Shown here piece by piece: positions 816 through 10,992 of a stretch of 10,992 nucleotides of DNA (its first letter is position 1; the number at the start of each line of letters is the position of its first letter). The stretch is taken from IMG/VR virus record IMGVR_UViG_2698536573_000008; one strand, given 5' to 3'. This DNA comes from a virus (lineage: Duplodnaviria > Heunggongvirae > Uroviricota > Caudoviricetes). The position numbers were made by a program, and so were the translations under genes. The notes below the pieces were generated by a model. That model saw only the letters and a program-made list of their open reading frames with translations, ran no database searches and was not told the DNA's origin.

Positions 816-1487
816 TTATTCCACCAGCAAAAATGGCGTTGCCCGGTCTATGACGTTGATGCCAATTAACGAGCTAACATTTCGACCATTCACAATGCTA
901 TCCCGTTCAAGCAAATGCGCTATTTTTTCTACTTCATACCAGTATTGAGCCATGAGGGCTTTGGTCTTTTCAACGAGTTTAGAAAGCATTAACTCCCTGT
1001 TAATTTGCTTATCTGTAGCGCAGATTAAATCGAGCATGTCATTTACGTTAGCCATGTCATAGCGATGAGGTAGCGAATACTTTTTGTTGAAAATATCGTT
1101 GTTTTCGTAAAGGGCTTCGCTTACTGGTCCGGCGAGGGATACAAAAGCGGCCTTTTTTGCATCGCGCTTTATACCATCCGCATAGTAACGTATGAAAGGG
1201 ATAACTTTACCATTCTGCCCAACTACACCAGATTTACTATCCCGCAAACGCCCGAGATCGTGGCTGTGAATTATGCTGTGTTTAACAACGCCCAAACACT
1301 TGGCCTCATGTACATGTTCGCCAGCAACGTAACCGTATTCATCCATAACGGCGATAACCTGTATATCTAAGCGAATAAGCCATGCAGCTACTGCATGTCC
1401 CGCTTCGTGGAATGCTACACATCGTTTACCATCACCTATCCAGTTATAGAACATTTCATGCTCATATATCTGGTGAATGGCGCCCAT
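816..1487 (-). CDS. standalone FtsH-like (peptidase M41-type) zinc metallopeptidase domain protein (223 aa)
   Basis: ATG at 1487-1485, TAA at 818-816. HEAGH zinc-binding motif at residues 27-31 in an FtsH-like context (CVAFHEAGHAVAAWL). Downstream MANVNDM resembles the FtsH third-ligand Asp region, and the C-terminal helical region is collinear with the FtsH protease domain. No AAA+ ATPase module. Sampled 60-nt blocks are 37-45% GC, below the backbone. Confidence 0.75.
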   Translation of the reverse strand: MGAIHQIYEHEMFYNWIGDGKRCVAFHEAGHAVAAWLIRLDIQVIAVMDEYGYVAGEHVHEAKCLGVVKHSIIHSHDLGRLRDSKSGVVGQNGKVIPFIRYYADGIKRDAKKAAFVSLAGPVSEALYENNDIFNKKYSLPHRYDMANVNDMLDLICATDKQINRELMLSKLVEKTKALMAQYWYEVEKIAHLLERDSIVNGRNVSSLIGINVIDRATPFLLVE

Positions 1488-1698: not shown

Positions 1699-1795
1699 GT
1701 TTCGCAAATAGCAATATTTATCACCGTAATTGCAAAATATGAAACAAATAGCACAAAAAATGCCGCCGCTCAGTAGCTGCTGGCATCGTTCTGTG

Positions 1796-1814: not shown

Positions 1815-1855
1815 TCGTTTTAAGCTCACCCCCCCATAGAATCTTTTTGGGGGTG

Positions 1856-2110
1856 TAATATCCCTACCAATCCCTACTAACTGGCTCATGCCACGAATGG
1901 CAAGGCTTTCAGACTGGTAGGCATTCAATTTTGTTGCCCTACATAACCCTACTTATCCCTACTAAATCACTTCAACGGCATTTTACTGCCTGTTTTATTT
2001 GGTAGGGATATGTAGGGATAAGTAGGGATAAAAATATATATCCCTACCTAGTTTAAAGCCTTGCTACGTCTGGCCTCGTCTCGTTTTTAGTAGGGCAGTA
2101 GGGATAAGTG
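1856..2110. repeat. iteron array (GTAGGGATA / TATCCCTAC), putative replication origin or crr-like primase-binding region
   Basis: Eleven copies of core CCCTAC/GTAGGG in both orientations: 1861-1868, 1871-1878, 1936-1943, 1947-1953, 1956-1963, 2041-2048 (plus orientation); 2002-2010, 2012-2020, 2022-2030, 2090-2097, 2098-2106 (reverse). Three exact GTAGGGATA copies in tandem at 10-bp spacing. Perfect 9-bp inverted repeat GTAGGGATA-aaaatata-TATCCCTAC (2022-2047) around an A/T spacer. Array ends 15 bp from the primase stop codon. Confidence 0.7.
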
Positions 2111-2124
2111 CCGCCGTAAAAGTT

Positions 2125-4566
2125 TCAATCATCACTCTGCCCGCTCTCCACACCGTAAGCGCGTGGCATGAACTCCTCAGCCTTCTCGTTATAGCCAACG
2201 TTGGTTTGCGCTCTGCCGTTAATGCTTCTCGTCAGGTAGCTGGCTCGGTACTCTTTTGCTGCTGATTTTATGGCGCGTGAAAACTTATTGACGGAAAGCG
2301 GTTTACCCAAACCGTGATACTCCATAAACGCCAGATAAAGATGATAAAGATACGTCCTCGGCTCTGGCTGGCCTGCCCATGTACCTCCGCCCATCATCAT
2401 GCCTTTGGGTTCGTTCATGAAAAAAAGCGCCGCACACATATCGACAACCGGATCCGTGCCGCTTTTAACCTCTAGCGCCTCCTGCGAATCGCGCTGCTCT
2501 AGTAATAGTGCCTTTGCTTTGTTCTGGTCGGCAAAGGTGGTTAGCAGGTGGCGGATAATCACCGGGATTTCTCGCCTGATTTTTGCGGTTAAATCCGGGT
2601 CTTTGTCTGCGTCTGATACCGGGTTATTAAACGGGAATATCACGCGGCGGCGGGCAATGCCCCCGTTTCGCTCCGTGAATGTCATCGGCTCGTTATTGGT
2701 TGCCATAACAACGGCATTTATCACGGTTGTGAACTGCTTTTCATATTTCCCATCAATCTCTACCGGATCGCCGCCCGTAATGGCTTTAATCCCCGCCCCC
2801 TCTCCAACATAGCGGGTCTGGTCAGGCATAATAATCAGGCTTTTTCCTACGAACTGCGCCCGTCCCCGTGCGGTGTCCAGCGTCATCATGCTACCGCTGG
2901 CGGTGTTGTGTTCACCTGCCAGCGTGGTTGCTATGCTGCTGAATACGGATTTCCCACTGCCGCCCTCGCCAGTTATCTCAATGAATAGCTGCCAGTCGTG
3001 ACGCTTCGCCAGCACCATAAACAAGGCTGCTTTGATACGCTCGGCCTTATGATGGTCGCCAGCCGTTGCATGATTCAGCCAACGGGTAAAATTGGGGGCG
3101 CTGGTGGTAATATTTTCCCCCAGCGCTGGCGGGGTGTAGGTGATCCCATTGTGGTTCATCAGCCAGTTACCCGGCGAGTGGGCGGAAAACGTCTGCGTAG
3201 CGAGGTCATAAACGCCGTTATCAAAACCAATCAGATCCCCGCTCCGCTCACCAATTACCGGTATTTGCAGCTTCATGGTTGCGACAACCGATTTAATCCC
3301 CTTTTCGGTGTAGTGGGCTTCGTGCTCGTCGAAAATTGCCACCATAACCCTTTCTAATTCGCTGTCTGGTAGCTTCACCCATACGCCAGATTCGTAGCAG
3401 TAAACAGTGCCACTATCAGGGTTAACCGCCAACATATCCCATCGAGATGAAAGCAACCGCGCTTTCTGGCTGGCTGCCATTTGTGCAATATCTCCGACAT
3501 CGGCTTTACGGCGGGATTTACCGCCCTCAATGGCTTGCAATCGCGGTTTCACGGCTTCCCCTTGAATCTGGTACATCGAATCGTTAAACGCAGCCGTAGC
3601 GACTTCCAGCCCGTTTTGCTGGCGGTAGTCGTCCCAGTCGGCTTTGTAGTCTGTCGGCGGCAGCGCCACCCAGCCAGCCACGGATAAGGCGGCTTTCTCT
3701 GCGGCATCTTTGCCCGTGTTCGCCTGGTCGTCCTGCTGGTGGTCGTTATCTGCGGCAATGATAATCTGCGTGGCTGGATATATCCGGCGCATCACTTCGG
3801 CAACGGGTAGCAGGTTGCCCGCGTCAATTGCTGCCACTGCCAGCGCGTCCGGGCGCATCAGGTGAACTGAAAGGGCCGTCGCCAGCCCCTCGGCAATTAA
3901 AACGCTCTGCGGCGATTCTGGCGCGTTTACGGCGTGATATGCCCCGCGCTTTGCTGAACCTGTCAGGAGTCGTTTATCTCCCTGCGGCGTGATGGTCTGC
4001 GCCGCCACTACTGCGCCGGATTCATCCACCAGCGGCAGGAGTAGCGAACCATCAGACATAACCGGGTAATTAAACCCGGTCAGCCCTTTTGATTGCAGGT
4101 AATCAGATTCGCCCTGTGTGACACTCTGGCGCATTCCGGCATACAGACGGGCAAACGTAGCCCTTCGCTGCTCTGCATCCTCTGCTGCCTGTTTCTGGCG
4201 CTCCTGCTCACGCTGCTGGCGGTCAGCTTCCAGTTGCTCTCTTCTATGGCTCGCTGCCACCGGGTCGGTTTCCGCTGCCCGGTAATCAATACCCAGCACA
4301 TCAGCGGCAAGCTGTGCCGCCTCCGTAGTGTCGCAGTTGTTCACCTTCTTAATCAGGTCTAAACCGTCACCAGCGCCACACTGATTGCAGATAAAGCTAC
4401 CGCGCCCGTTGTCGTCGAATCTGAAACGGTCTTTTCCACCACATGCAGGGCATGGAGAATGGCGGCGCGATGAATCAGGCACGTCGATAGACAATCCAGC
4501 CAGCACATAAGGCCAGCGCCCGGCGGCGGCACTGGTCACTTCGCGGATAAGGTCGATATTACGCAT
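2125..4566 (-). CDS. P4 alpha-like DNA primase / helicase (about 813 aa)
   Basis: Long minus ORF. Best start is ATG at 4566 preceded by AGGAGG; the ORF-track start at 4623 is GTG. N-terminal Cys-rich zinc-binding motif (CPACGG...CNQCG), TOPRIM-like acidic motifs (IAEGLATA, AADNDHQQDD), Walker A GEGGSGKS in the C-terminal helicase-like region. TGA at 2127-2125. Confidence 0.93.
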   Translation of the reverse strand: MRNIDLIREVTSAAAGRWPYVLAGLSIDVPDSSRRHSPCPACGGKDRFRFDDNGRGSFICNQCGAGDGLDLIKKVNNCDTTEAAQLAADVLGIDYRAAETDPVAASHRREQLEADRQQREQERQKQAAEDAEQRRATFARLYAGMRQSVTQGESDYLQSKGLTGFNYPVMSDGSLLLPLVDESGAVVAAQTITPQGDKRLLTGSAKRGAYHAVNAPESPQSVLIAEGLATALSVHLMRPDALAVAAIDAGNLLPVAEVMRRIYPATQIIIAADNDHQQDDQANTGKDAAEKAALSVAGWVALPPTDYKADWDDYRQQNGLEVATAAFNDSMYQIQGEAVKPRLQAIEGGKSRRKADVGDIAQMAASQKARLLSSRWDMLAVNPDSGTVYCYESGVWVKLPDSELERVMVAIFDEHEAHYTEKGIKSVVATMKLQIPVIGERSGDLIGFDNGVYDLATQTFSAHSPGNWLMNHNGITYTPPALGENITTSAPNFTRWLNHATAGDHHKAERIKAALFMVLAKRHDWQLFIEITGEGGSGKSVFSSIATTLAGEHNTASGSMMTLDTARGRAQFVGKSLIIMPDQTRYVGEGAGIKAITGGDPVEIDGKYEKQFTTVINAVVMATNNEPMTFTERNGGIARRRVIFPFNNPVSDADKDPDLTAKIRREIPVIIRHLLTTFADQNKAKALLLEQRDSQEALEVKSGTDPVVDMCAALFFMNEPKGMMMGGGTWAGQPEPRTYLYHLYLAFMEYHGLGKPLSVNKFSRAIKSAAKEYRASYLTRSINGRAQTNVGYNEKAEEFMPRAYGVESGQSDD

Positions 4567-4900
4567 GGTTGCCTCCTGCCACGGTCGCGCCCATGTCTTT
4601 AACCATGCTTTGCCATATCTCACGCCCGACGTCAGTCAATCCGTCATTAGTGACGCAACGCTCAAGAAGCTCGACCCCCACGGTTTCCCACTGCGGGTAG
4701 GACACTTTCATGGCTGCCAGTGTGTAGCTATCGATCAGGCTGCGAACGCCTTTTACTCCATTGACGATTTCCACACGGACGGCGAGGCCGTCCGCATCAA
4801 CCATGAAATAGTCACCGCCGCTGGTGGAGGTAATGTGGTTATACAGTGCCGACGCATACTTATTCGCCAGCGCATTCAGTCTGAAATTTTTAGTAATCAT
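4559..4900 (-). CDS. hypothetical protein (113 aa), upstream of and overlapping the primase start
   Basis: ATG at 4900-4898 with GGGGG RBS. TAA at 4561-4559 overlaps the primase ATG (ATGCGTAA). No recognisable motif. Confidence 0.6.
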   Translation of the reverse strand: MITKNFRLNALANKYASALYNHITSTSGGDYFMVDADGLAVRVEIVNGVKGVRSLIDSYTLAAMKVSYPQWETVGVELLERCVTNDGLTDVGREIWQSMVKDMGATVAGGNHA

Positions 4901-6283: not shown

Positions 6284-7187
6284 GTGCGCCCCCTGTGCGA
6301 ATACGTCCGGCAAAAAAGCAAACGTGATCCCGCGCCAGAATGCGGCGGGCTTCCTGCTCAGTCTCTGCGGCGATATGGTGAATTTTGACGGTAATTGTCG
6401 GCATATCGCGGCGAACTGCTGCGATAATCCAGATAAATTGCGGTTTTTGGGTAGGGGTAGTAGCCAGCATAGCGGCAGCCTCTGATTCATGGTTTTGAGA
6501 ACCACCACCGGAAACGCCAATTTCGCTGGTGGTGAACTGTACAGGGTTGGCGTAACCGGGAATCAGAGAAACCGGCGCGGATTGCTCCGCCCCCATACAG
6601 TCCACCATTGAACAGGTGTAACTGCGCGGCACAAAAAAACACGCATGGCGCGTGTTGTGCGCTCTGATAATTACCGGGACGCCAATCCCGACACCAGATT
6701 TTGCTGGTGCGCTATAACCATAAACCGGGTTGGCGATAGTCGGCAAGCCCTTTTTTATGGACTCCAGAAACTCACCTTCGCGCGTGCGCGTACTGTTGCA
6801 TAAATTCCCTGCATCTAGTGGTGATGTCAGAAAAATCTTCCCGCCTCGTGTAGTGATGATGGGAAAATCTTCCTCGCGTAGTGACCCCCAATAAATCTTC
6901 GTGCGCGTACTGGTCTCGAAACTCTCCTCGTCACCACGACGAGAAAATGAGGAGCTGGCATTAGCTGGCACTGTTATGCCAGCTTCGCATTCATGCGCGT
7001 GCGTACTTGTCCCGAAAACACCAAGATTTGTAAAGATCTGGCGGTGGCAAATGTCAGGTTTTGACAGGTTCCAAACGTCGCTATTTGTCGCAATCTGGCG
7101 GCGGGCTGCTTTGCTCCAGACGTTAACATTTGCATACATCAGGCCAGCCAGGGGAAAGGCTTTATTCTGGATGGCGGCATTAAGCAT
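6276..7187 (-). CDS. hypothetical protein, start uncertain (303 codons if started at 7187)
   Basis: C-terminal half (about 6279-6770) has protein-like sequence. The part encoded by about 6772-7105 is densely repetitive DNA and gives low-complexity S/T/R/G-rich translation. The ATG at 7187 overlaps the antirepressor stop (ATGCTTAA) with a GGGGG RBS, but the true start may be internal or non-ATG. Confidence 0.4.
   Translation of the reverse strand: MLNAAIQNKAFPLAGLMYANVNVWSKAARRQIATNSDVWNLSKPDICHRQIFTNLGVFGTSTHAHECEAGITVPANASSSFSRRGDEESFETSTRTKIYWGSLREEDFPIITTRGGKIFLTSPLDAGNLCNSTRTREGEFLESIKKGLPTIANPVYGYSAPAKSGVGIGVPVIIRAHNTRHACFFVPRSYTCSMVDCMGAEQSAPVSLIPGYANPVQFTTSEIGVSGGGSQNHESEAAAMLATTPTQKPQFIWIIAAVRRDMPTITVKIHHIAAETEQEARRILARDHVCFFAGRIRTGGAHA
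6772..6945. repeat. degenerate tandem repeat array, period about 26-32 bp, 5-7 units
   Basis: Units begin near 6772, 6803, 6833, 6865, 6893, 6919 with shared AAAT(C)TTC(C) plus GTAGTGA/GTACTG cores. Exact 13-mer CGTGCGCGTACTG at 6783-6795 and 6900-6912, with a variant GCGCGTGCGTACTTG near 6994-7008. Confidence 0.6.
6953..6984. promoter_or_regulatory. operator-like cluster: AGCTGGCA x2 direct plus inverted copy TGCCAGCT
   Basis: AGCTGGCA at 6953-6960 and 6963-6970; TGCCAGCT at 6977-6984. Copies 2 and 3 form a perfect 8-bp inverted repeat with a 6-nt spacer. Confidence 0.4.
7052..7070. promoter_or_regulatory. bipartite 19-nt motif TGTCAGGTTTTGACAGGTT (copy 2 of 2)
   Basis: 17/19 identical to 1796-1814; the two differences fall at the same relative position in each half-site. 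Flanked by a direct repeat ATTTGT-N4-ATCTGGCGG (7026-7044 and 7083-7101). Confidence 0.4.
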
Positions 7188-8025: not shown

Positions 8026-8460
8026 TTAGGCGGCGGTGAGATTGTCCGGGTATAGGTTGAGAATGTCGGCAATTTCAGGCTGAGAAAGTCCCTGATAGCC
8101 GCCAGCGTCGGCGTTATGGTTCACAAGCCGAATAACTTTTAGAACGTCACCGCGCCCGGTAAAGCGATAGCGTAAATGTGACCCTATCCCGTCGGGGTTC
8201 TTTTCGTCTATACGCTCAAGCTGAATATCAAGCCTGCGCTCTAACTCGCTGGCGTAGTTCCTTCCAGATGAAAGGCGGCAATATCGCAGAATGTCGTTTT
8301 CTGTCCATCCCTCTACGCCAGTACGCAGCATATAGACGCGGGCGCGGTGTTTCTTTGGGGTTCGCTTAGGTACTTGTACCGGGCTGGTGGTCGGCGTAAT
8401 ATCAGACGTGCGAATATCTGAGTTAGCCGCCTGCTGTACGGGGCGGTTTTTCTTTTTCAT
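8026..8460 (-). CDS. hypothetical protein (144 aa), basic N-terminus
   Basis: ATG at 8460-8458 overlapping the AlpA stop (TAATG). Lys/Arg/Pro-rich N-terminal region. No motif recognised. Confidence 0.6.
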   Translation of the reverse strand: MKKKNRPVQQAANSDIRTSDITPTTSPVQVPKRTPKKHRARVYMLRTGVEGWTENDILRYCRLSSGRNYASELERRLDIQLERIDEKNPDGIGSHLRYRFTGRGDVLKVIRLVNHNADAGGYQGLSQPEIADILNLYPDNLTAA

Positions 8461-8663
8461 TACGCCACCTTTCCCCGGCGCTCCGCCAGCCAGTTATTAA
8501 TCTCTACCGCATCAAAGGCGGTAATCTTCTCCCCCAGCTTTACCGGGCGCGGTAGCGAGCCGCTGCGAACTTTGCGATCAATGGTTGAAACACTAACGCC
8601 CAGCAATTCAGCAAGGCGGAAGCGTCTGATATAGCCTTTTGTAGGGATAGTGTCGATGTTCAT
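8460..8663 (-). CDS. alpA: AlpA-family phage transcriptional regulator / excisionase-like HTH protein (67 aa)
   Basis: ATG at 8663-8661, TAA at 8462-8460. HTH region LAELLGVSVSTIDRKVRSGSLPRPVKLGEKITAFDAVEINNWL matches the AlpA/excisionase-family pattern. Position after int is typical of P4-like and PICI elements. Confidence 0.8.
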   Translation of the reverse strand: MNIDTIPTKGYIRRFRLAELLGVSVSTIDRKVRSGSLPRPVKLGEKITAFDAVEINNWLAERRGKVA

Positions 8664-8769: not shown

Positions 8770-9720
8770 TTAACTATCCACTTTGCCATTTGCCGCAGAT
8801 CGCAGCTGTTTAAGAATTACATCTTCATTAGTTATCATAAGTGGTGGAACTTCGTCTAAATGACGAACAAGACAGTCACGCCACTTCTCAGGGCTTATTT
8901 CTTTCCTTACTCCCCTGCATTCATTTGGATACTTACTAAGTATATAAATTGCAGATTTTAATAGTTTCTCCCTATTGACTGCGTACCGTTCGGCACGTTT
9001 ATTAACTTTTAGCGTATTTATATCATTGGATAACTTGTTTGCGGGTGGTTTGTGCATGGGTCTGTCATAAATATATTTTCCTCCATTTATAAGAAGATTG
9101 TATTCATAGTCAGTTATATACATTTTATTTCGGCTTATTTCATACCAGCCGTCAATATAAAAAGCTCCGATTTCATAATTATTCGATTTGCTAAACTCGT
9201 CACATCTCGGAGGCGTCAGTTCGCATACGGAGATCTCCCAATCATCCCATTCTGATAGCTCCCGCTCATCGTTATCTATGAACGCAGACGGAATTGCTAA
9301 TAGACCGTTCCATCTTTCGATATCTCTTTCATCCTTCCCAACATTGTATCGCTCTATAACTGAGAAATGTTCTGATTTGTATGAAAACCTCATAAAATAC
9401 ATATGGTTATCGCTATTTTTATAATCAAGCGGTGATAAGCCATATGATTCGAGATTATCTGCCTCATTGCTCAGATTAAGAAGATAATTCTCATGTGCTG
9501 CTTTTGTATCTATATGAAAAATACTATCTGTTTCAACTTTAAGTAATTCTGGGTCGGCATCTTCATTTTTGGGGTAATGGTAAAACAATTCAATAGGTGG
9601 AATTTTTATACATATTTCTAAAACCCCAATTGCTGCATAGTGTATTAAATCGGATACTTCACATCCGGCCAGTTTGGCTGCTTTATCCAAAGAATAATAT
9701 TTATGCGCAGGTAATTTCAT
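8770..9720 (-). CDS. AT-rich orphan protein (316 aa), possible N-terminal HTH; candidate accessory or anti-phage cargo
   Basis: ATG at 9720-9718 (GAGAGGAAAG upstream), TAA at 8772-8770. Hand-counted GC about 23-37% in sampled 60-nt blocks versus about 60% in the primase. N-terminal YYSLDKAAKLAGCEVSDLIHYAAIGVL resembles an excisionase/MerR-type HTH. The rest is acidic and Tyr/Trp-rich with no catalytic motif recognised. Starts 18 nt after the integrase stop. Confidence 0.8.
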   Translation of the reverse strand: MKLPAHKYYSLDKAAKLAGCEVSDLIHYAAIGVLEICIKIPPIELFYHYPKNEDADPELLKVETDSIFHIDTKAAHENYLLNLSNEADNLESYGLSPLDYKNSDNHMYFMRFSYKSEHFSVIERYNVGKDERDIERWNGLLAIPSAFIDNDERELSEWDDWEISVCELTPPRCDEFSKSNNYEIGAFYIDGWYEISRNKMYITDYEYNLLINGGKYIYDRPMHKPPANKLSNDINTLKVNKRAERYAVNREKLLKSAIYILSKYPNECRGVRKEISPEKWRDCLVRHLDEVPPLMITNEDVILKQLRSAANGKVDS

Positions 9721-9738
9721 TATGAATCTTTCCTCTCA

Positions 9739-10992
9739 TCATGCTCTGATTGGCGTTACGTTGTAGTCTTTTCCGCTTTCCAGTGCCACCAGCAAATCAC
9801 ACCACTGCGCCAGCGCCGCTTTACGCTCATCAAAATACTGGTGACGGTTATAGATACCTTCCACGCCTTTAATTTTGTGATTAAGGCATCTTTCTGCGAC
9901 TACCGGATCAACGCCCAGCGCTGCTAAATGAGTACGTGCGGTGCGTCGGAAGTCGTGAATCGTGAAATTAGGCACATCAGGCATTTCAGCGCGAACCTTA
10001 GCCAGTGCTACGGGTAAAGTGCTTTCCTGAATATGTGGGATCATTCTGTTTTGCATCTTCCTGGCTGGAAGCACCCATGCGCTGTTGCATGAGAACGTTT
10101 TAAGCTCTCTCAGCCATTCGACGGCTGGCGGTGCTAATGGGATGTCTATAGCGTCGCCGTTTTTGCTGCGTTCCTCTGGTAAATGCCATACGGCTTTATC
10201 AAAATCGAACTCCTCCCAGCGGGCGGCGCATAACTCCATTTTGCGGACGCATAACGCTAACAGTAATTTGAACGTGATTTCGTTCTGACGGCTGAATCCC
10301 TTAGCCGTGCGCATAGCCTGAAACAGTCGGATTAGTTCGCCACGTGTTAACCAGCGGTCGCGGGAAACTTCTTTCCCTCCGGCGTCTGCCACCTCAAAGG
10401 CTGAACACGGGTTAATCTCCAGTGCGTGCCGCTTAATGCCGTAGTCAAATATGCGGCGTGTCCAGCGCAGAACGTCCGTTGCTATGGTCGGCGCTCCACG
10501 GTCAACAATACTTTTCAGCATGTCGTCGATATGGCGCGGCTTCACGTCCTCCACCTTCATGCTGCCAATGCATGGGTTTATATCTTTGTCGATACGGCGG
10601 CGGAGTATATCGGGGTGCTTCCAGCGCGGGAGGATCTGACGCTCAAAGTATTCAGCGGCAAGCTCTGAAACGCGCATAGCGTTCTTCTCTGCTTCCATCT
10701 TCGCCAGTGCTTCGGTTTTGCGCTTCTGCTTCTCTCCTGCAACGTCATAGCCCAGCGCAACGCGAGCCGATAGCTCTTTGGCTGTCTCTCTGGCCTTTGA
10801 TAGTGATAGCTCGGCATATGAGCCAATCAGCATGGCGCGGGGTTTCCCTGCGAATTTATAGCGGAATCGCCAGACGGGGGTCTGGTAGTTTTCGCGGTAT
10901 GAAAGATAAAGCCCGTTACCGTCAGAGCGTCCCTCGAATCGCTCCCCGGCCTTTATCCATGCGCGGATCTGCATGTCTGTGAGTTTTGGCAT
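9739..10992 (-). CDS. int: P4-type tyrosine integrase (417 aa)
   Basis: ATG at 10992-10990 (window edge), TGA at 9741-9739. N-terminal arm-binding-type motifs (DGNGLYLSY, WRFRYKFAGKPR, LSLSKARE). C-terminal catalytic region HDFRRTARTHL with tyrosine in GIYNRHQY. Confidence 0.93.
   Translation of the reverse strand: MPKLTDMQIRAWIKAGERFEGRSDGNGLYLSYRENYQTPVWRFRYKFAGKPRAMLIGSYAELSLSKARETAKELSARVALGYDVAGEKQKRKTEALAKMEAEKNAMRVSELAAEYFERQILPRWKHPDILRRRIDKDINPCIGSMKVEDVKPRHIDDMLKSIVDRGAPTIATDVLRWTRRIFDYGIKRHALEINPCSAFEVADAGGKEVSRDRWLTRGELIRLFQAMRTAKGFSRQNEITFKLLLALCVRKMELCAARWEEFDFDKAVWHLPEERSKNGDAIDIPLAPPAVEWLRELKTFSCNSAWVLPARKMQNRMIPHIQESTLPVALAKVRAEMPDVPNFTIHDFRRTARTHLAALGVDPVVAERCLNHKIKGVEGIYNRHQYFDERKAALAQWCDLLVALESGKDYNVTPIRA

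Follow-up and report, generated by a model that had tools for sequence, protein, structure and literature searches.

The subject of this study is an array of short repeats (iterons) in a 10,992-bp stretch of viral DNA, hereafter the window (IMG/VR record IMGVR_UViG_2698536573_000008, Caudoviricetes), where it lies directly 3' of a gene for a P4-alpha-like primase-helicase. The array is very probably the cognate replication origin of a satellite island of the phage-inducible chromosomal island (PICI) type, bound by the primase-helicase encoded beside it. In site order and orientation its closest match is the single contiguous origin of the Gram-negative PICI EcCICFT073, not the bipartite ori plus crr of satellite phage P4. 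The initial annotation had proposed an origin or a crr-like site; all computational tests agree with the first of these. The analogy to crr holds in position, but no second cluster was found and the internal arrangement differs.

The core GTAGGG was enumerated on both strands of the window and significance was assessed with 200 shuffles. Thirteen copies were found against 3.05 expected, a number reached in 0 of 200 shuffles, and 11 of them cluster within 1862-2103. Together with one degenerate copy (GTAGGC) these form 12 sites spanning 1859-2106. The site consensus is (A/T)-T-(T/A)-N-GTAGGGATA with core positions G1-G5 invariant, and exact GTAGGGATA occurs seven times (minus strand at 1859, 1954 and 2039; plus strand at 2002, 2012, 2022 and 2098). 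Minus-strand sites start at 1859, 1869, 1934, 1944, 1954 and 2039, and plus-strand sites at 1917 (the degenerate one), 2002, 2012, 2022, 2090 and 2098. Start-to-start spacing inside sets is 10 bp (plus triple 2002-2030, minus triple 1934/1944/1954, minus pair 1859/1869), the exception being the 2090/2098 pair at 8 bp. An exact palindrome, GTAGGGATA-aaaatata-TATCCCTAC, occupies 2022-2047. The repeat cluster in both orientations beside the primase, the 10-bp phasing of the three copies at 2002-2030 and this palindrome had all been described in the initial annotation and were recovered here, with the degenerate twelfth site added. Its distance of 15 bp between array and primase stop was approximately right: an array end at 2110 leaves 14 nt, and the last iteron, ending at 2106, lies 18 nt from the stop codon (2125-2127). 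The gap after the primase stop is 464 bp in all. The parts of the array are as follows.

1859-2106, no strand: whole array, the proposed origin, 12 sites as a 2 x 6 dyad (enumeration, syntax and folding)
2090-2106, plus strand: sites 1-2, closest to the primase, GTAGGGCAG at 2090-2098 and GTAGGGATA at 2098-2106, 8-bp spacing
2039-2047, minus strand: site 3, a single inverted iteron and palindrome partner of site 4 across an A/T-only gap
2028-2041, no strand: 14-nt gap separating the 6-nt cores of sites 3 and 4, 100% A/T, a candidate first melting point
2002-2030, plus strand: sites 4-6, three exact GTAGGGATA, 10-bp spacing
1963-2001, no strand: central 39-nt spacer, 67% A/T, the dyad centre and an alternative melting region
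1934-1962, minus strand: sites 7-9, GTAGGGATA, GTAGGGTTA and GTAGGGCAA, 10-bp spacing
1917-1925, plus strand: site 10, a degenerate single inverted iteron GTAGGCATT, in whose place the related locus L003 has a full GTAGGG
1859-1877, minus strand: sites 11-12, GTAGGGATA and GTAGGGATT, 10-bp spacing

As single-stranded DNA, the 250-nt array folds into one long, imperfect hairpin (-57.5 kcal/mol against -24.7 +/- 3.4 for shuffles, z = -9.7). The twelve sites thus make up a single dyad centred near 1982.

Related loci were collected by a scan of one genome per species, other genera included, which gave 79 loci (referred to by L numbers) with primase relatives 47-92% identical. At each locus k-mers were counted in the 450 bp past the stop codon, and three protein segments were compared with the window protein. 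Sites were then mapped in primase-gene orientation. The syntax << (~40 nt) > (14 nt, 64-100% A/T) <<< (26-39 nt) >>> (13-14 nt) < (~39 nt) >> is shared by the window, L003, L005 and L074 (GTAGGG), L008 (GTAGAG) and L046 (GTGAAC); L024, L067, L069, L071 and L009 have it too, save for one to three sites that escaped the core pattern used. Reverse-complemented, this 12-site syntax reads the same, so that it consists of 2 x 6 sites. Among the D5-type arrays, 14 retain the equivalent of the 2028-2041 gap, at 64-100% A/T, and the mirror of the all-A/T gap in the window (about 1923-1936) is 79% A/T.

EcCICFT073 offers an experimentally tested counterpart. In PMC6092414, PICI origins are described as lying immediately 3' of pri-rep and as made of iteron sets, and a temperature-sensitive plasmid carrying rep-ori of EcCICFT073 gave colonies at the restrictive temperature, with none for a rep mutant and significantly fewer for an ori deletion. 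The EcCICFT073 origin (L002 6997-7284, a 288-bp gap after the primase) has GGTAGAYA sites in both orientations, arranged << > <<< >> < >>. These are 11 sites, to which the window adds a third > in the middle triple to make 12, and the gaps of the two are similar (about 40, 14, 27-39, 14 and about 40 nt). In both islands the origin lies directly 3' of pri-rep and int, alpA and pri run in one direction; the C-terminal domains of the two initiators are 39-45% identical and the helicases 59%. Unlike the window, EcCICFT073 uses the word GGTAGAYA in place of GTAGGGATA, encodes a 584-aa protein without the Zn-ribbon/Toprim N-terminus (2% identity), has a 42-nt proximal spacer of 74% A/T, and carries major capsid and head decoration genes, while no capsid genes were found in the window. 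Thus, set against the origins of related islands, a comparison envisaged in the initial annotation, the array agrees with that of EcCICFT073 in the order and orientation of its sites and differs in the word. The window array therefore shares the architecture of the tested PICI origin, written in another word. The structural marks of such an origin are present: 6 + 6 sites in both orientations around a 39-nt centre of 67% A/T, plus a 14-nt all-A/T gap, directly 3' of the initiator, in an island at yicC-dinD with unidirectional int, alpA and pri.

Comparison of the protein segments with the iteron words across the loci indicated that the word is predicted by the C-terminal domain of the primase and not by its N-terminal primase domain. 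Loci whose C-terminus is 80-96% identical to that of the window (L003, L005, L006, L007, L011, L074) carry GTAGGG, and L008 (Rosenbergiella epipactidis), at 75-81%, carries GTAGAGA, one base off GTAGGGA. At 53-62% the loci carry GGTAGGGTT or GGTAGAxA-type words (L040, L071, L024 and L035, with GGTAGGGTT, GGTAGAGA, GGTAGATA and GGGTAGAC), and EcCICFT073, as noted, has GGTAGAYA. L009 and L046 resemble the window protein in the N-terminus (66-69%) and helicase (72-83%), with only 29-35% in the C-terminus, and have the P4 word GGTGAACA; their C-termini cluster with those of other P4-word proteins at 75-89% identity. Ten further loci (L048, L052, L054, L055, L058, L061, L063, L065, L070, L075) combine an N-terminus 61-88% identical with an unrelated DUF927-type C-terminal half and have GAGACAAC or TGAACCAAC. 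This covariation of word and domain supports a primase-origin specificity distinct from that of P4, as the initial annotation had suggested from the difference between the word and the P4 iteron.

Several observations were made alongside this comparison. The C-terminal differences between L008 and the window cluster in RASYLTRSINGRAQ against RAEYKTRLVKGKTQ, which makes the pair a natural candidate for mapping specificity determinants. The DUF927-type loci L048, L052, L054 and L055 on the one side and L058, L063, L065 and L070 on the other have N-terminal Toprim identities of 72-88% and a syntax of their own, <<< (A/T, ~50) >>> >> < >>>, in which GAGACAAC and TGAACCAAC occupy identical positions; the module junction lies near aa 360-400. 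L010 (Serratia fonticola, 6416-6865) is a full-length relative with a C-terminus 52-55% identical and no iteron array detectable in the 450 bp past its stop, and its origin may be elsewhere or lost. Two contigs labelled Chryseobacterium sp. 18061 (L011, L063) encode enterobacterial-type primases (82% and 75% identity) beside GTAGGG and TGAACCAAC arrays, respectively; this assembly is probably contaminated or mislabelled.

The domain composition of the primase is in keeping with iteron recognition by its C-terminus. Pfam assigns a Zn-ribbon primase domain, Toprim, a D5_N/DUF5906 superfamily 3 (SF3) helicase and a Pox_D5 C-terminus, and the protein is a full-length homologue of P4 alpha (38% identity across 98% of its length). 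Residues 704-796 match Protein Data Bank (PDB) entry 1KA8 (E = 4.2e-8, phmmer; chain name 'putative P4-specific DNA primase'), the solved origin-binding domain of P4 alpha. It is established that P4 alpha uses this C-terminal domain to bind its type I iterons, as reported by Ziegelin et al. and by Yeo et al. 2002. The helicase part matches 7OLA (E = 1.4e-11), the chain of which is named 'DNA primase', and which is cited in the paper on the SaPI5 PriRep helicase (PMC9371898). The two features are placed as follows.

2125-4566, minus strand: P4-alpha-like primase-helicase gene, 813 aa in RefSeq ('phage/plasmid primase, P4 family'; Pfam)
2179-2457, minus strand: coding region of the C-terminal winged-helix domain (aa 704-796), the putative iteron reader (1KA8 match; covariation with the word)

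The linkage of array and primase was surveyed in 5,426 complete E. coli genomes. The array was present in 78 of these (~1.4%), on chromosomes only and in 1-2 places each, and the last 356 bp of the primase gene were likewise present in 78; the two were contiguous in 76 of 77 genomes. The N-terminal 967 bp of the primase gene were found in 130 genomes, some of them within 'TOPRIM and DUF927' proteins. This restricted distribution is not that of a generic host repeat family, the alternative raised in the initial annotation. None of the PICI type strains of Table S1 (PMC6092414) was found among 60 of the 77 array-carrying genomes. Compared with L003, an island at a different site (xseA-yfgJ), 95 of 107 iteron positions are identical against 82 of 148 spacer positions (Fisher p = 4e-9), and the iteron positions are under purifying selection. 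The genes 3' of the array differ among GTAGGG-type loci: a 57-aa protein and a HEAGH-motif protein in the window, a 69-aa protein and single-stranded DNA-binding protein (SSB) in L003 and L074, SSB directly in L005, and other small proteins and SSB in L006 and L007. The array is thus part of the primase module. Homology between the window and L005 stops ~45 bp past the last iteron.

The spacers of the array and the DNA just beyond it contain motifs that recur in arrays of other words.

2055-2073, minus strand: proximal copy of a non-iteron spacer motif, CCAGACGTAGCAAGGCTTT, with related motifs in the matching spacers of other-word arrays
1891-1912, plus strand: distal copy of this motif, CCACGAATGGCAAGGCTTTCAG, in the opposite orientation to the proximal one
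1827-1855, minus strand: hairpin CACCCCC-N15-GGGGGTG with the motif AAAAAGATT...GGGGGGG, just beyond the last iteron (fold -13.4 kcal/mol, z = -1.8)

The spacer motif approximates CCAG-N5-6-GC-NN-GGCTTT(CAG) and is found in the ~40-nt spacers of many arrays whatever their word, including those of DUF927-type replicons. It was also seen in L007, L024, L046, L067, L052, L058 and EcCICFT073, and the window has one inverted copy per half-origin. A site for integration host factor (IHF) in this motif was considered and rejected: by eye, only the window copy comes within one mismatch of WATCAANNNNTTR and other loci fit poorly. The 1827-1855 hairpin is conserved in L003, L005, L007 and L074, and arrays of other iteron classes have related AAAACTTTT-N-GGGGG motifs (13 of 21 arrays, where chance predicts 0.5% per 450-mer). 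In the form AAAA[CG][AT]TTT-N-GGGG(G) the motif sits 10-20 nt past the last iteron, also in L008, L024, L035, L046, L067, L069, L071 and EcCICFT073. It travels with the origin module and folds into a C7/G7 hairpin in the window.

By analogy with P4 alpha and with the Rep/PriRep proteins of Staphylococcus aureus pathogenicity islands (SaPIs), initiation at the array may proceed as follows. After induction and excision, the winged-helix domains would bind the twelve iterons and two hexamers would self-assemble, one per six-site half. The DNA would then melt at the A/T-only 14-nt gaps or at the 67% A/T centre (1963-2001), and the SF3 helicase would load itself without DnaA, DnaB or DnaC. The N-terminal Zn-ribbon/Toprim part would make primers, to be extended bidirectionally by host polymerase III. 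Because the word differs from the GGTAGAYA, TGTTCACC, TGAACCAAC and GAGACAAC of co-resident satellites, each replicon is proposed to be insulated from the initiators of the others.

SaPI origins with Rep/PriRep have reportedly been described by Ubeda et al. They comprise 6-12 iterons immediately 3' of rep, which a C-terminal winged helix recognises, and a hexamer is proposed to form on each side (PMC9371898). The window resembles them in having short iterons 3' of the initiator gene in two halves, and its helicase part matches 7OLA in sequence, the SaPI helicase being a self-loading hexamer. It differs in that SaPIs are Gram-positive with 5-6-nt iterons and a central A/T-rich region, and relatedness is confined to the helicase core of a distant lineage. 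Iteron-plasmid oriV regions (RepA/Pi/TrfA) likewise have an initiator encoded beside repeated sites, and the word-specific insulation resembles incompatibility. However, they carry direct repeats of 17-22 bp and DnaA boxes and rely on the host for DnaB loading, whereas the window has 9-bp sites in inverted sets and an initiator that itself combines helicase and primase. A DnaA-dependent oriV was rejected, as no match to the DnaA box TTWTNCACA was found anywhere in the window and no Rep_3 domain in the Pfam search.

Several points weigh against the array as the origin of the island. The covariation of word and domain comprises few independent word classes and not many independent events. The long A/T-rich proximal spacer of EcCICFT073 (42 nt, 74% A/T) and of the P4-word loci L046, L067 and L069 (37-50 nt, 78-86% A/T), together 37-50 nt and 74-86% A/T, is absent here. 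Its place is taken by the second, inverted copy of the G+C-containing spacer motif, which leaves the melting site ambiguous. The six sites per hexamer are so far a numerical coincidence, and, by analogy, since P4 needs two separate iteron regions, one array need not suffice. In a different reading, which we consider improbable, the array is a crr-like enhancer of replication to which the primase binds, and replication starts elsewhere, as in P4. The position is that of crr, which lies 46 bp 3' of the alpha stop (4291-4590 in the P4 record X51522, L004), as the initial annotation had recognised; the protein is a homologue of P4 alpha; and no long A/T-rich tract lies within the array. P4 further shares an initiator built of primase, SF3 helicase and winged-helix origin-binding domain, with iterons a few tens of bp 3' of its gene in both orientations. 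However, the ten TGTTCACC sites of P4 crr fall into two 120-bp direct repeats, five in each, with units > < < (37) >> in tandem, whereas the window has a 12-site inverted dyad with the full two-half syntax of the plasmid-tested EcCICFT073 origin. The P4 record also bears out the type I iteron TGTTCACC as given in the initial annotation, in place of which the window has GTAGGGATA. P4 ori and crr lie 4.5 kb apart, whereas the window has a single cluster: GTAGGG outside the array occurs only as singletons in L001 (23 kb), L003, L005, L006, L007 and L074, the island left of the window having been scanned in L001 only. In P4 a terminator separates alpha from crr, sid, psu and delta are present that were not found in the window, and C-terminal identity is 29-32%. 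One lone exact GTAGGGATA is located at 8641-8649, inside the first codons of alpA with no cluster around it. It is probably a chance copy (~0.08 extra copies expected), though its position is suggestive, given that P4 ori lies upstream of the AlpA-like ORF88.

The repeats might instead be a bank of operators, bound by AlpA, PerC or an autoregulating primase, that would regulate the cargo operon downstream or the ending of primase-operon transcription. They are intergenic and precede the next genes on the minus strand; on the primase strand they are followed by a terminator-like hairpin, and iteron-binding initiators often autoregulate. This reading is nevertheless very improbable, given that the downstream genes vary among loci with the same array. 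Likewise, EcCIMP1 shares most neighbours (AntA/B and AlpA-type upstream; a pRiA4b-ORF3-family protein, a 61-aa protein and PerC downstream), yet has a different primase C-terminal half and different iterons. A consensus scan of 1400-2300 gave no sigma-70-like promoter and no terminator, and a 12-site dyad matching a tested origin would be an atypical operator layout. Least probable of all, to the point that we give it hardly any weight, is a role of the array in partition, as a centromere-like site, or in packaging, or its being a generic repeat or a structured RNA unrelated to replication. Phased short repeats can be centromeres and the single strand could form a long hairpin, but no par or terminase gene was named in the window (Pfam and PHROGs on twelve open reading frames, RefSeq annotation for the remaining ones), and the array is not dispersed in the genomes surveyed. 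What is conserved, moreover, is the iteron sequence itself and not pairing, with drift in the spacers. The Rfam scan of 1400-2400 at E <= 1 matched no family and returned noise only (bxd_4, mir-4536), on which ground a structured RNA was rejected.

With the array read as a PICI-type origin, the position of such origins 3' of pri-rep in PICIs and SaPIs and iteron binding by P4 alpha were known already; what is new, as far as found, is the word GTAGGGATA. Among the ten papers listed of 472 that matched GTAGGGATA or TATCCCTAC in a literature search, none deals with bacterial replication or describes these iterons. For PMC6092414 the check covered its supplements and not its Fig. 2a; the terms 'iteron', 'GTAGGG' and 'CCCTAC' do not occur in them.

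A more general model is possible, though we hold it only tentatively. The origins of P4-alpha/D5-type initiators would share a fixed 12-site syntax, in which the word (GTAGGGA, GTAGAGA, GTAGAYA, GTGAACA) is exchanged together with the C-terminal winged helix and each half templates one hexamer. The spacer motifs that recur whatever the word (CCAG-N5-6-GC-NN-GGCTTT and AAAACTTTT-N-GGGGG) would either bind a second factor common to these origins or mark where primers are begun. P4 ori (annotated 9086-9809; sites at 9310-9413, plus strand) reads >>> (14) < (35, A/T-rich) >>, exactly half of the window syntax, and the requirement of P4 for both ori and crr is therefore proposed to reflect a split dyad. 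For the fixed syntax, the spacer motifs and the reading of P4 ori as a half-origin, the observations cover a limited number of loci and do not amount to demonstrations.

These results annotate the origin of a satellite-island family of E. coli and other enterobacteria, and add a new pair of initiator and iteron specificity. With words swapped naturally on an unchanged scaffold, the recognition code of the winged helix could be mapped, the closest pair being GTAGGGA and GTAGAGA with binding domains 75-81% identical, and mutually compatible, DnaA-independent replicons could be built. The comparison also suggests a testable reason for the need of P4 for crr, and current understanding is not overturned.

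The window matches the chromosome of E. coli O6:H16 M9682-C1 at 100% identity, and there the island lies between yicC and dinD. All island genes in the window are on the minus strand (RefSeq annotation, Pfam, PHROGs), in the order tyrosine integrase (9739-10992), a 316-aa protein, an AlpA-family regulator (8460-8663), AntA/AntB, an Ash/Icd-like protein, five small proteins, the primase, the array, a 57-aa protein, a 223-aa HEAGH-motif protein and PerC. With int, alpA and pri in one transcription direction, this is the layout of a Gram-negative PICI, as described in PMC6092414. Table S1 of the same paper catalogues the PICI EcCIRM13514 at the same yicC-dinD site. This island (L085 8055-8545) was rejected as the same replicon, having a different, 607-aa primase and P4-word TGTTCACC iterons in the same general syntax. 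Since it occupies the same site with a different primase and iterons, islands at one attachment (att) site exchange whole replicon modules.

In gene content the island resembles EcCIMP1 (L084), a Kapi1-dependent PICI that was experimentally mobilised and is classed as 'Type C' under the de Sousa scheme (PMC11773190). Both have AntA/B, Ash/Icd, AlpA and PerC and an array 3' of the primase, and the pRiA4b-ORF3-family and 61-aa proteins are the same RefSeq entries (WP_000284450.1, WP_000188903.1). EcCIMP1 differs in its primase, annotated 'TOPRIM and DUF927 domain-containing' (the class difference is taken from L048, L052, L058 and others, the EcCIMP1 protein being known by annotation), and in its word TGAACCAAC, arranged <<< (A/T) >>> (10828-11421), a shorter version of the DUF927-type syntax.

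Neither a capsid gene nor a terS or rpp-like gene could be recognised in the window (RefSeq annotation, Pfam, PHROGs), and sid, delta and psu were neither annotated nor detected there, the island left of the window having been inspected via annotation only. One copy of an att-like core, GAGCAGATTCAA, is present on the int side, with no second copy found in L001. Two tandem dinD copies (L001 2861-4851) adjoin the presumed left end of the island. The 223-aa protein (816-1487, minus strand) has an FHEAGHAV motif, sub-threshold Pfam matches to Peptidase_M41 and M50B and no PHROG match. RefSeq names its relatives 'peptidase M41 family', and it may be a cargo metalloprotease.

1752-1795, minus strand: terminator-like hairpin plus U6 on the primase strand, 3' of the array (fold -20.2 kcal/mol, z = -3.0; no call in the consensus scan)

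With this hairpin beyond the array, the primase transcript would traverse the origin before ending, whereas the P4 terminator sits between alpha and crr. A direct repeat, TGTCAAGTTT / TGACAAGTTT, occupies 1796-1815, between the origin module and the next gene. EcCIMP1 has a near-identical pair, TGTCAGGTTT / TGACAGGTTT (L084 10965-10984), despite its different iterons, so the repeat is part of the downstream module, where it may be a regulatory site.

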